From Escherichia coli (lineage in GTDB: Bacteria > Pseudomonadota > Gammaproteobacteria > Enterobacterales > Enterobacteriaceae): a stretch of DNA of 64,000 nucleotides. This document shows positions 41,393-44,284 of the stretch, one piece after another. The notes beneath the pieces are model-generated. The model was not told the origin of the DNA, did not search any database, and saw only the letters and a program-made list of their open reading frames with translations. The first letter of the stretch is position 1. Each line of letters opens with the position of its first letter. Position numbers and translations under genes: made by a program. The stretch lies in assembly GCF_003790525.1 (NCBI RefSeq), contig NZ_CP033635.1; one strand, given 5' to 3'.

Positions 41393-43255
<1,863 letters not shown>

Positions 43256-43309
43256 TCCCTACTCCACTCCTGCTATGCTTAAGAAATTATTCATGGCAGG
43301 AGTGGCAGC

Positions 43310-44284
43310 ATGCAATACAACCCCTTAGGAAAAACCGACCTTCGCGTTTCCCGACTTTGCCTCGGCTGTATGACCTTTGGCGAGCCAGATCGCGGTAATC
43401 ACGCATGGACACTGCCGGAAGAAAGCAGCCGTCCCATCATTAAACGCGCGCTGGAAGGCGGCATAAATTTCTTTGATACCGCCAATAGCTATTCCGATGG
43501 CAGCAGCGAAGAGATCGTCGGTCGCGCACTGCGGGATTTCGCCCGTCGTGAAGACGTGGTCGTTGCGACCAAAGTGTTCCATCGCGTTGGTGATTTACCG
43601 GAAGGATTATCCCGTGCACAAATTTTGCGCTCTATCGACGACAGCCTGCGCCGTCTCGGCATGGATTATGTCGATATCCTGCAAATTCATCGCTGGGATT
43701 ACAACACGCCGATCGAAGAGACGCTGGAAGCCCTCAACGACGTGGTAAAAGCCGGGAAAGCGCGTTATATCGGCGCGTCATCCATGCACGCTTCGCAGTT
43801 TGCTCAAGCACTGGAACTACAAAAACAGCACGGCTGGGCGCAGTTTGTCAGTATGCAGGATCACTACAATCTGATTTATCGTGAAGAAGAGCGCGAGATG
43901 CTGCCGCTGTGTTATCAGGAAGGCGTGGCGGTGATTCCATGGAGCCCGCTGGCGCGGGGCCGTCTGACGCGTCCTTGGGGAGAAACCACCGCACGGCTGG
44001 TGTCGGATGAAGTGGGGAAAAATCTCTACCAAGAAAGCGATGAAAATGACGCACAAATTGCAGAACGCTTAACGGGCGTCAGTGAAGAACTTGGTGCAAC
44101 ACGAGCACAAGTTGCGCTGGCCTGGTTGTTGAGTAAACCGGGCATTGCCGCACCGATTATCGGAACTTCGCGGGAAGAACAGCTTGATGAGCTGCTGAAC
44201 GCGGTGGATATCACTTTAAAGCCGGAACAGATTGCTGAACTGGAAACGCCGTATAAACCGCATCCGGTAGTAGGATTTAAATAG
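43310..44284 (+). CDS. yajO: aldo-keto reductase YajO
   Basis: 324 aa AKR family. Confidence 0.9.
   Translation: MQYNPLGKTDLRVSRLCLGCMTFGEPDRGNHAWTLPEESSRPIIKRALEGGINFFDTANSYSDGSSEEIVGRALRDFARREDVVVATKVFHRVGDLPEGLSRAQILRSIDDSLRRLGMDYVDILQIHRWDYNTPIEETLEALNDVVKAGKARYIGASSMHASQFAQALELQKQHGWAQFVSMQDHYNLIYREEEREMLPLCYQEGVAVIPWSPLARGRLTRPWGETTARLVSDEVGKNLYQESDENDAQIAERLTGVSEELGATRAQVALAWLLSKPGIAAPIIGTSREEQLDELLNAVDITLKPEQIAELETPYKPHPVVGFK

Follow-up and report, generated by a model that had tools for sequence, protein, structure and literature searches.

The hairpin that separates dxs from yajO in Escherichia coli probably gates yajO translation according to the type of transcript, while also marking the end of the dxs operon and nesting a σS-type promoter between its arms. 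We analysed this junction within a stretch of 64,000 nucleotides of E. coli DNA (hereafter the window). The helix pairs the yajO Shine-Dalgarno (SD) sequence and is kept across 80 Enterobacteriaceae species through compensatory changes, the promoter motif embedded in it is invariant, and opening the yajO start region costs far more energy on an RNA that carries both arms than on one that begins between them.

Structure of the dxs-yajO junction

The spacer between dxs and yajO, the latter annotated as encoding an alternative DXP-forming enzyme, is 54 nt long. The junction is composed of the following features (window coordinates):

43253-43255, plus strand: dxs stop codon TAA, 6-8 nt before the first paired bases of the hairpin
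43256-43263, plus strand: pyrimidine-rich, G-poor spacer from the dxs stop to the helix, its composition kept across species, its sequence and length not
43262-43308, plus strand: whole hairpin, with outermost pairs 43262-63/43307-08 and a bulged C at 43306
43264-43277, plus strand: 5' arm CCACUCCUGCUAUG, including the anti-SD CUCCU at 43267-43271
43278-43291, plus strand: apical region, with a 3-bp stem (43280-82/43287-89) and a GAAA loop
43292-43305, plus strand: 3' arm CAUGGCAGGAGUGG, including the yajO SD AGGAG at 43298-43302
43310-43312, plus strand: yajO start codon
43310-44284, plus strand: yajO coding sequence, 324 aa

In the MFE fold of 43256-43312, the segments 43264-43277 and 43292-43305 form a contiguous 14-bp helix with one U-G pair, and the total helix including this core amounts to 16 bp. 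The predicted free energy is -28.1 kcal/mol, as compared to -11.4 +/- 2.7 kcal/mol for 200 dinucleotide shuffles (z = -6.1), none of which matched the stability of the hairpin; when folded in a 101-nt context, z is -3.15. A repeat search returned inverted-repeat arms at 43264-43282 and 43287-43305 (19 nt, 84% complementary, 4 nt apart), the only inverted repeat within a 400-nt region around the hairpin. The SD, located 7 nt before the ATG, is paired with CUCCU at 43267-43271. The hairpin is an SD-sequestering structure, in which the SD is bound to an upstream anti-SD within a stable helix.

The original prediction had described a stem of 9-10 bp between the dxs stop codon and the yajO ATG, its 3' arm overlapping the yajO ribosome-binding region. 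The gene surroundings and the overlap match this account, with AGGAG sitting inside the 3' arm, and the folding that had been suggested as a check yields the stable hairpin reported above. The stem is real and positioned as claimed, its actual length being 14-16 bp. The prediction also carried a doubt of 1 nt about its own indexing, which proved immaterial: its interval, 43262-43308, coincides exactly with the outermost pairs of the fold.

Conservation and covariation

For the comparative analysis, we took the 80 best Enterobacteriaceae loci, one per species, from a YajO search of genome contigs, and aligned 76 sequences, each from a different species. The hairpin is present in 80 of the 80 species at these best loci. 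An identifiable AGGAG is paired in the MFE fold at 79 of them, and the exception (L008) carries GGGAG within the same helix. For the helix as given above, 83.5% of the alignment cells are paired, whereas slid registers reach only 33-50%. Changes on both sides were found at five pairs (25 cells), a level attained by none of 500 shuffles, and the same holds for the covariation score. RNAalifold independently recovered a 9-bp core with three covarying pairs. Among the compensatory changes are CG to UA and GC to AU, and one pair shows 27 G-U states.

The eight central pairs of the helix are invariant and the outer stem covaries; because the core is invariant on both sides, support from covariation comes from only three to five outer pairs. 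The CTCC of the 5' arm is invariant in the 76 aligned sequences, though it lies outside the -10 block described below. The flanking spacer and the loop vary freely, the loop measuring from 4 to about 30 nt between species and the distance from the dxs stop to the helix from about 6 to more than 16 nt. The hairpin is a conserved, structured cis-regulatory RNA, its pairing being kept via compensatory changes. The original prediction had named a lack of conserved pairing across species as the outcome that would count against it; the pairing is conserved, with covariation.

A σS-type promoter nested in the hairpin

Two further features lie between the outer ends of the arms:

43271-43282, plus strand: TGCTATGCTTAA, an invariant σS-type extended -10 element reaching from the inner part of the 5' arm into the 5' side of the loop
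43284-43285, plus strand: start site of the nested promoter, as placed from the class I start mapped in K-12 (U00096.2 437509-437510, minus strand)

The element is laid out as a TG, the -13C position, TATGCT at 43274-79 and then TAA. It is invariant in all 80 species at the best loci, even where its pairing partner varies. Roughly half of the sequences, no more, retain the pairs joining 22-24 to 50-52, and pairing does not explain the invariance of TGCTATGCTTAA. The segment 43272-82 (GCTATGCTTAA) is an exact instance of KCTAYRCTTAA, the σS -10 consensus (Weber et al., 2005, quoted in PMC5650638), and the sole match in the 64-kb window, where 0.24 are expected. The σS determinants listed by Peano (2015), namely -13C, -8C, -6T and an A/T-rich discriminator, are all present in the nested promoter, and no -35 element is recognisable. 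Judged by the consensus match together with -13C, the element is a predicted σS-dependent promoter. The identical 12-mer serves as the promoter of ynfD, for which a start site has been mapped. A promoter scanner called nothing in the dxs-yajO intergenic region; it requires two hexamers for a call and is thus blind to an extended -10 promoter without a -35 element.

Publications on K-12 place transcription at this site. A class I primary start has been mapped to 437509-10 on the minus strand (Romero 2014 supplement; coordinates converted as v3 = v2 + 776), which lies 5-6 nt past TATGCT, compared to the canonical 7. A K-12 σS ChIP-seq peak has been attributed to yajO. In the K-12 data of Cho (2014), σ70 and σS ChIP-chip signals span the region; yajO is listed as a separate transcription unit, and units that comprise dxs but not yajO are listed as well. 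In the same study, the log2 level of yajO mRNA was 12.1 in the wild type versus 10.6 in the rpoS mutant, a modest dependence in K-12 (a drop of ~1.46 log2, ~2.8-fold), and dxs mRNA shifted in the opposite direction. The yajO mRNA was far more abundant in stationary phase (log2 12.1 vs 6.8; Cho 2014).

A Rho-dependent RNA 3' end next to the helix in K-12

Term-seq data from K-12 reveal a 3' end at NC_000913.3 438135 (minus strand, score 38352), having a significant Rho score of 2.89 and an intrinsic-terminator score of 1.03, where the threshold is 3 (Adams 2021, PMC7815308). This position corresponds to 43310 in the window, 2 nt past the last helix pair. The K-12 Rho termination region at 438058 (Adams 2021) falls at ~43387. 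In the same study, a yajO 5'UTR+ORF-lacZ fusion starting at the 5' arm was among 14 fusions expressed more than twofold higher in the K-12 rhoR66S background. The first 100 nt of yajO have a C/G ratio of 1.3, as compared to 0.88 for the whole gene. No terminator-like site was called by a scan of the dxs-yajO intergenic region. After the stem, the species carry either GGCAGCAUG or GGAACCAUG, the tail in the window being CAGCAUGCAAUACA, and a U-run occurs in none of the 76 aligned species. The hairpin is not an intrinsic terminator, as the original prediction had suggested, noting the missing U-tract; both the sequence and the K-12 intrinsic score bear this out.

Given the strong K-12 3' end just past the helix, Rho-dependent rather than intrinsic, the hairpin might purely protect the 3' end of the dxs operon mRNA from exonucleases after Rho termination, its overlap with SD and promoter being incidental packing. 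The very stable stem and the lack of any other terminator between dxs and yajO fit this reading as well. For such a purpose any sequence would do, yet the arms are SD and anti-SD in 80 of 80 species, with the SD always paired, and if translation were not blocked it would be hard to see why Rho should act right where yajO begins. End protection is largely a subset of the gating model and not an alternative to it, and as a complete explanation we regard it as unlikely.

A proposed gate on yajO translation

Opening the region from SD to AUG requires 22-24 kcal/mol when the 5' arm is present and 4.9 kcal/mol on an RNA starting at 43284. The corresponding medians over the 76 species without a long insertion amount to 20.3 and 5.1 kcal/mol; in no species do the two forms differ by less than 9.6 kcal/mol. 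The junction has a fold-back arrangement, as the gene's own transcript starts between the arms (a start mapped in K-12 only) and lacks the 5' arm. With the yajO-specific transcript devoid of the 5' arm, the hairpin would act only on transcripts arriving from upstream.

We propose that upstream RNA, derived from xseB-ispA-dxs read-through or, in E. coli, possibly from a start at the hairpin foot, would carry both arms, allowing the anti-SD CUCCU(GC) and the SD (GC)AGGAG to come together in a helix with a free energy near -28 kcal/mol. With the SD locked in this helix, 30S subunits would be unable to bind, and the untranslated start of yajO would be exposed to Rho, which would terminate transcription within the first ~100 nt of the gene. 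3'-to-5' exonucleases would then trim the RNA back to the hairpin, which would be left to protect the 3' terminus of the dxs-operon mRNA. Indirect support for a block on read-through RNA comes from the Rho sensitivity of the K-12 fusion starting at the 5' arm. Holoenzyme, mainly with σS but also with σ70, would recognise TGCTATGCTTAA and start in the loop at 43284-85, yielding a transcript with a ~25-nt 5' UTR that lacks the 5' arm, such that the SD would be free and YajO could be made. As a net effect, YajO would follow its own stationary-phase/stress promoter, insulated from the housekeeping transcription of the dxs operon. Translational control of yajO and a part in RNA stability or processing, which the original prediction offered as alternatives, seem to belong to a single mechanism.

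Instead of blocking translation, the hairpin could couple it: a ribosome ending at the dxs stop would melt the 5' arm, making YajO synthesis proportional to Dxs translation. SD-occluding hairpins mediate translational coupling in phage and operon systems, and since the dxs stop in E. coli lies 6-8 nt from the first pairs, a terminating ribosome would reach the outer pairs. However, at most the outer 0-5 pairs of the 14-20-bp helix would be opened, leaving CUCCUGC/GCAGGAG intact, and the distance from stop to helix is not fixed among species (~6 to >16 nt). Coupling is also difficult to reconcile with the opposite response of yajO and dxs mRNAs to rpoS deletion, with the stationary-phase abundance of yajO (12.1 vs 6.8 log2), with the dxs transcription units that lack yajO (Cho 2014) and with Rho termination just inside yajO. 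We thus hold translational coupling to be quite improbable.

Start sites and the ERIC insertion

Two additional features concern the ends and the interior of the hairpin:

43247-43255, plus strand: TGGCATAAT, candidate second extended -10 element, from which transcription would start at ~43263, the hairpin foot
43294-43295, no strand: empty target site of the ERIC (IRU) MITE, boundary ambiguous by 1-2 nt

The published start sites for K-12 yajO do not agree with one another. The 5' ends given by Cho (2014) are 437400 and 437453, both of which lie within the ERIC, and 437509 is not among them. The cloning primer for the 'yajO 5' UTR' in Adams (2021) opens with TCCACTCCTGC, implying a K-12 start at 438307, upstream of the hairpin. 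If yajO in E. coli were transcribed chiefly from 438307, its principal mRNA would carry the inhibitory hairpin, and a factor that opens it would be needed. The upstream element TGGCATAAT is limited to the Escherichia/Citrobacter/Salmonella group, many genera having GCCTGAT. None of the coordinate prefixes searched near the predicted yajO starts appears in the tables of Ettwiller (2016), and the hairpin sequence CTCCTGCTATG had no match in the Klebsiella start-site table of Kim (2012), so that no yajO start could be located there.

Of 5426 complete E. coli genomes, 2844 carry an ERIC at the hairpin site, as does K-12; the window represents the empty allele. In K-12, the 127-bp insert interrupts the hairpin, and an outer helix of 17 bp is predicted to form despite it. 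The insert is multi-copy (median of six places per genome). Across 5424 E. coli genomes, the hairpin locus is present in a single copy (median of one place per genome), and no second copy of the hairpin sequence was found in the 64-kb window; the hairpin is not a dispersed repeat family. Several K-12 RNAs map to the interrupted locus: a putative sRNA, ecr0419, at 437352-437510 and an antisense start at 437386 on the plus strand, inside the ERIC (Romero 2014). In a stationary-phase dataset, RNase III-derived duplexes from the K-12 intergenic region rank fourth in abundance among those of protein-coding loci.

All wet-lab evidence on the junction comes from K-12, that is, from the ERIC-interrupted allele. 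Roughly half of E. coli have the structure uninterrupted, and findings from K-12 may therefore not hold for them.

These K-12 RNAs raise the question whether the hairpin is a discrete sRNA body (e.g. a sponge or an RNase III substrate) or a 5' stabiliser against RNase E. An RNA from ~43263 to ~43310 would be a stable 48-nt hairpin, or 173 nt with the ERIC in K-12, in line with the start at 438307 implied by the Adams primer, the abundant 3' end at 438135, ecr0419 and the high rank of the region among RNase III duplexes. Against this stands the restriction of the upstream -10 to Escherichia, Citrobacter and Salmonella, with the hairpin conserved beyond them. Moreover, the ERIC and its internal antisense start, both absent from the window, account for the K-12 RNAs and the dsRNA cluster, a start at 43284 leaves only ~27 nt in ERIC-free strains, and there is no known trans target. 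A role as sRNA or stabiliser is, in our view, very unlikely.

As the promoter -10 lies inside an inverted repeat and σS promoters are sensitive to supercoiling, the repeat might act at the DNA level, either as the operator of a dimeric regulator or as a supercoil-responsive cruciform occluding the nested -10. The G-U-compatible states (27 at one pair) and compensatory changes fit RNA, however, and would not be expected of cruciforms or of the half-sites of a protein, G-T being a mismatch in DNA, and with a loop length ranging from 4 to ~30 nt, such an element is highly improbable. That the hairpin is an intrinsic terminator of the dxs operon or a repeat-family relic (REP/BIME or MITE end) is barely credible, despite a G+C-rich stable stem directly after a gene and a MITE inserted at this site in many strains, as a U-tract is missing in E. 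coli and the other species, the K-12 intrinsic score is only 1.03, and the sequence is single-copy, without Rfam match and orthologous in 80 species at the best loci. The Rfam scan of 42800-43800 at permissive E-values gave chance matches only, the best being an L31-Firmicutes leader (19.1 bits vs a threshold of 33.3, E = 0.28).

Comparison with known systems

A literature search retrieved no existing description of the dxs-yajO intergenic region. The closest analogue of the yajO element appears to be the 'fold-back inhibition' of IS10/Tn10, reportedly described by Davis, Simons and Kleckner in 1985 (Cell 43:379), in which transcripts from outside are said to have their translation start signals sequestered. 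IS10 is also said to have its own promoter between the inverted-repeat arms, producing a native transcript that lacks the 5' arm and is translatable, and thereby to be insulated from external promoters. The same fold-back logic applies to IS50 and other insertion sequences. A passage of the IS10 literature states that the translation signals are sequestered. As in IS10, the yajO inverted repeat would sequester the SD only on outside transcripts, with the promoter placed between the arms. In contrast to IS10 with its transposase, yajO is a metabolic gene of the chromosome, located at an operon junction, and the element is vertically conserved in the family. It further differs by its σS-type promoter and by the proposed coupling of the block to Rho and to a protected upstream 3' end, and the antisense RNA component of IS10 has no known counterpart in the ERIC-free yajO allele.

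The SD-sequestering 5'-UTR stem-loop of IS200 tnpA acts in cis and blocks 30S binding (Ellis et al., 2015, PMC4513863), thus resembling the yajO junction in combining an anti-SD/SD helix in cis with protection from impinging transcription. The IS200 stem-loop resides in the gene's own mRNA, which it represses constitutively, whereas transcription from outside is dealt with by a bidirectional terminator distinct from the stem-loop. Unlike in IS200, a single yajO hairpin would do both jobs, and yajO's own transcript would escape it. The position of the 3' end at the stem foot is reminiscent of Rho-dependent leader termination followed by trimming to a stem (Adams et al., 2021; Dar & Sorek, 2018), and, as in that class, the K-12 end is bicyclomycin-sensitive and not an intrinsic terminator. 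Adams et al. (2021) describe attenuation in the yajO 5' UTR; the SD/anti-SD hairpin, the nested promoter, the link to dxs and the ERIC polymorphism are not part of their account. With its exact consensus, -13C and TAA extension, the nested promoter is like other σS extended -10 promoters (Weber et al., 2005), as it is in its K-12 σS binding and partial rpoS dependence. Unlike the usual members of this class, its -10 is embedded in an RNA-level hairpin.

Whether a stress-sigma promoter inside the terminator/insulator hairpin of the preceding operon constitutes a general, so far unnamed design, a switch that is retuned by ERIC, is a tentative thought and more likely wrong than right by a wide measure. 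If true, a 45-nt element would combine three tasks, ending housekeeping transcription, keeping leak-through RNA from being translated and starting a stress-specific mRNA, and the ERIC in its loop, carried by half of E. coli, would retune it, in K-12 by adding an antisense promoter, RNase III substrates and a longer outer helix. The locus would then be a natural experiment in which a mobile element rewires a conserved riboregulator. Under the gating model, the locus is a clean, deeply conserved chromosomal instance of the insulation logic of insertion sequences, testable by a handful of point mutations, and a single architecture unites entries so far unexplained: the Rho-dependent "internal" 3' end, ecr0419, the RNase III dsRNA cluster and the conflicting starts. 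Since dxs encodes the flux-controlling first enzyme of the MEP isoprenoid pathway, co-expression versus insulation of dxs and yajO matters for engineering; on this model, anyone who cloned "dxs-yajO" as one operon would also bring in the block of yajO translation.

Other candidates in the region

An RNA thermometer was ruled out, a nearly perfect 14-bp helix of -28 kcal/mol at 37 °C being far too stable. An antisense promoter in the conserved block was likewise rejected, as there is no plausible minus-strand -10 and the K-12 antisense start at 437386 lies inside the ERIC. A dxs product extended by read-through as far as the in-frame TAA at 43280 was discarded because the frame is not kept, the spacer varying in length. 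Finally, a small ORF at 43275-43328 (MLKKLFMAGVAACNTTP), which overlaps the yajO start, was set aside as well: it has no SD, its ATG lies upstream of the mapped transcription start, and its length and stop vary between species, ranging from 4 to ~20 codons.

A conserved hairpin occludes the yajO ribosome-binding site

The dxs-yajO spacer comprises 54 nt in the window and contains one inverted repeat (43264-43282 with 43287-43305). RNA folding of 43256-43312 revealed a hairpin of -28.1 kcal/mol, compared to -11.4 +/- 2.7 kcal/mol in shuffles (z = -6.1), bearing out the stem-loop postulated between the two genes. The original prediction of a stem of about 9-10 bp underestimated its length, as the actual helix is half as long again.

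Features of the dxs-yajO junction (window coordinates; hairpin elements from the RNA fold of 43256-43312)
43255: dxs end
43262-63 with 43307-08: outer pairs of the hairpin, 2 bp
43264-77 (CCACUCCUGCUAUG) with 43292-305 (CAUGGCAGGAGUGG): contiguous 14-bp helix
Directly above the 14-bp helix: 2x2 internal loop
Hairpin tip: 3-bp apical stem with GAAA loop
C43306: bulge
43294-43295: ERIC insertion site, empty (filled in K-12, at 2650-2776 of locus L001)
43310: yajO start

The 3' arm had been suspected to overlap the ribosome-binding region of yajO, and in the fold the SD sequence AGGAG (43298-302), located 7 nt from the AUG, is wholly paired to CUCCU (43267-71). As likewise anticipated, the hairpin is not followed by a U-tract, and neither a terminator scan nor an Rfam search returned a hit at the hairpin. 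In this E. coli window, 43100-43500 matches SMS-3-5 and further strains at 100% identity, and of 5426 complete genomes 5424 contain the region in single copy.

A scan with YajO yielded 80 loci, one per species, spanning Escherichia, Citrobacter, Salmonella, Enterobacter, Klebsiella, Raoultella, Kosakonia, Kluyvera, Atlantibacter, Pluralibacter and others, with dxs immediately 5' of yajO in every case. The loci have two near-invariant spacer blocks in common, CTCCTGCTATGCTTAA and, directly ahead of the start codon, (A/G)GCAGGAG, separated by sequence that is hypervariable in length and composition. An SD-occluding hairpin was predicted alike in each species folded. Its outer stem adopts compensatory states, namely CCAC/GUGG in E. 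coli, UCGC/GCGA in Citrobacter, CUCU/AGAG in Atlantibacter, CGGC/GCUG in Kluyvera, and CCGC paired with GCGG or GUGG in many genera. In a 76-sequence alignment, the 16-bp helix is 83.5% paired and exhibits both-side changes at five pairs (25 cells), a pattern matched by none of 500 shuffles, whereas sliding the register by 1-3 columns leaves just 33-50% paired. RNAalifold independently recovered a 9-bp core. The pairing, on whose conservation across species the original prediction had been staked, is thus retained. Within E. coli, the sole 5'-arm polymorphism noticed, C43265U, converts a C-G into a U-G pair.

At five loci (L026, L047, L050, L060 and L070; position 2501), belonging to several species of Enterobacter, Lelliottia, Pseudescherichia and Pluralibacter, yajO has the start codon GTG in place of ATG, with hairpin and SD unchanged. 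The stretch from the dxs stop to the hairpin (window 43256-43263; L002-L081), variable in length and sequence between species, is rich in pyrimidines and has hardly any G in nearly every one of them (e.g. TCCCTCCCCTTTCC); it could serve as an extra anti-SD reservoir or as part of a Rho loading site.

A promoter nested in the hairpin

Within the 5' block, the columns ATGCTTAA are invariant, while their 3' partners vary, so that these pairs (22-24 with 50-52) form in roughly half of the species only; something besides the helix must therefore hold the columns constant. Judged by its sequence, TGCTATGCTTAA (43271-82) reads as an extended -10 element. The fit to KCTAYRCTTAA, the -10 consensus for sigma-S (Weber et al., 2005; given in PMC5650638), is exact, and neither strand of the 64-kb window holds another match. 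Also present are -13C, -8C, -6T and an A/T-rich discriminator, all named as sigma-S determinants by Peano et al. (2015). The CTCC of the 5' arm is invariant though outside the -10 block, as would be expected were it kept by base-pairing with the SD, a sequence under constraint of its own.

In K-12, a class I start, that is, one TAP-enriched and at the leading edge of transcription, has been mapped on the yajO strand at U00096.2 437509-437510 (Romero et al., 2014). Coordinate conversion (NC_000913.3 = U00096.2 + 776, checked against printed sequences) places it at window 43284-85, within the loop and 5-6 nt past TATGCT. Published K-12 data further include a sigma-S ChIP-seq peak assigned to yajO (Peano et al., 2015), as well as binding of sigma-70 and sigma-S and a separate yajO transcription unit (Cho et al., 2014). 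In stationary phase, yajO mRNA (log2) amounted to 12.1 in wild type vs 10.6 in the rpoS mutant, in which dxs mRNA shifted in the opposite direction (Cho et al., 2014). The identical 12-mer TGCTATGCTTAA is present in the K-12 ynfD promoter, whose mapped start (U00096.2 1655563, +) lies 7 nt 3' of the hexamer; ynfD is an independent case of the 12-mer working as a promoter.

A 17-codon ORF (43275-43328, +; MLKKLFMAGVAACNTTP) opens with the ATG of TATGCT and runs across the yajO start. Lacking an SD, not conserved in length and lying upstream of the mapped start, it is probably not a gene.

Start-site datasets disagree at yajO. The K-12 5' ends 437400 and 437453 (Cho et al., 2014) both fall within the ERIC, lack credible -10 elements and may be processed ends. 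A primer used by Adams et al. (2021) implies a K-12 start at 438307, corresponding to window 43263 at the hairpin foot. If this start were strong in E. coli, a substantial fraction of yajO mRNA would begin with the inhibitory hairpin. About 8 nt 5' of it, TGGCATAAT (43247-43255, +) overlaps the dxs stop and resembles an extended -10. Only Escherichia, Citrobacter, Salmonella and a few further genera possess this motif; since most lack it, it cannot explain the conserved architecture.

Two kinds of transcript differ in predicted yajO accessibility

RNA starting at 43284 lacks the 5' arm, whereas RNA from dxs contains both arms. The computed cost of opening the region from SD to AUG drops from 22-24 kcal/mol in the presence of the 5' arm to 4.9 kcal/mol in its absence. 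The corresponding medians over 76 species free of a long insertion are 20.3 and 5.1 kcal/mol, with a minimum difference of 9.6 kcal/mol.

In K-12, yajO has been listed among genes with Rho-dependent premature termination (Adams et al., 2021). In that study, a strong Term-seq 3' end (NC_000913.3 438135, score 38352) has a significant Rho score of 2.89 and an intrinsic-terminator score of 1.03, below the threshold of 3; it coincides with the A of the yajO AUG, 2 nt beyond the last helix pair. A Rho termination region was assigned to 438058, 77 nt inside yajO, and a yajO 5'UTR+ORF-lacZ fusion rose more than 2-fold in rhoR66S (Adams et al., 2021). The forward primer of this fusion begins at TCCACTCCTGC, such that the 5' arm is included. 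This 3'-end pattern is typical of RNA that Rho terminates while untranslated and that exonucleases then trim back to the stable stem. Over its first 100 nt, yajO contains more C than G (C/G 1.3, vs 0.88 across the whole gene).

We propose that the hairpin acts as a transcript-selective gate, a mechanism that we consider moderately probable as a whole. On RNA arriving from upstream, the hairpin would keep yajO translationally silent, and this silent RNA would therefore be terminated by Rho; the hairpin would be left as the shielded 3' terminus of the dxs-operon mRNA. A short-leader, translatable yajO mRNA would come from the nested sigma-S-type promoter, which starts in the loop. Were the hairpin purely a protective 3' stem, it would be left unexplained why its arms are exactly SD and anti-SD in 80 species. 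Three observations weaken the case for coupling of yajO translation to dxs termination: the stop-to-helix distance is variable (~6 to >16 nt), the two mRNAs are regulated in opposite directions, and Rho terminates shortly after the start of yajO. The many G-U-compatible states speak against a DNA cruciform or operator. Intrinsic terminator, repeat-family relic, Rfam family and RNA thermometer each fail one defining test.

The yajO hairpin is a solid and testable finding. In function, its closest counterpart is the "fold-back inhibition" of IS10/Tn10, reportedly described by Davis, Simons and Kleckner in 1985 as shielding the transposase from external promoters; IS200 has related SD-sequestering leaders. 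The yajO start site and a putative RNA, ecr0419, were already recorded (Romero et al., 2014), and our literature search found no paper on the hairpin and its conservation, on the SD/anti-SD pairing, on the promoter nested in it or on the insulation logic. Practically, the gate bears on MEP-pathway engineering and on carrying K-12 results over to ERIC-free E. coli.

K-12 carries an ERIC-interrupted allele

The published experiments were all performed on the K-12 allele, in which the spacer extends to 179 nt owing to a 125-127-bp insert with TA flanks inside the 3' arm. The insert, found at a median of 6 places per genome, contains the sequences of primers ERIC1R and ERIC2, each with a single mismatch, and its size and flanks agree with ERIC, described as a miniature transposable element of ~127 bp. 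Of 5426 complete E. coli genomes, 2844, among them K-12, are filled at this site, which is empty in the window, O157:H7-type strains and EcN; every empty allele inspected reads TTCATGGCAGG. In K-12, the outer helix is still predicted and is longer (17 bp).

An antisense class I start (U00096.2 437386, +) lies inside the K-12 ERIC (Romero et al., 2014), and the K-12 spacer ranks fourth in abundance among protein-coding loci as a source of RNase III-derived duplexes in a stationary-phase dataset. The coordinates listed for this antisense feature also include U00096.2 437393-437579, and antisense 3' ends are located ~60 nt into dxs (NC_000913.3 438373/438376, +). The abundant dsRNA cluster over the K-12 spacer is best explained by the ERIC and the antisense start within it, and does not concern the window. 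The ERIC thus seems to have added antisense RNA to the K-12 locus that the window allele lacks.

The loci listed for ERIC polymorphism are L001 (K-12), L003, L027, L029, L034, L035 and L082. ERIC copies also occupy the same spacer in Phytobacter and Kosakonia, an 85-nt remnant is present in one Enterobacteriaceae MAG, and E. albertii and E. coli CT265 harbor a composite ERIC with a ~78-nt internal insert, resulting in a 257-nt spacer.
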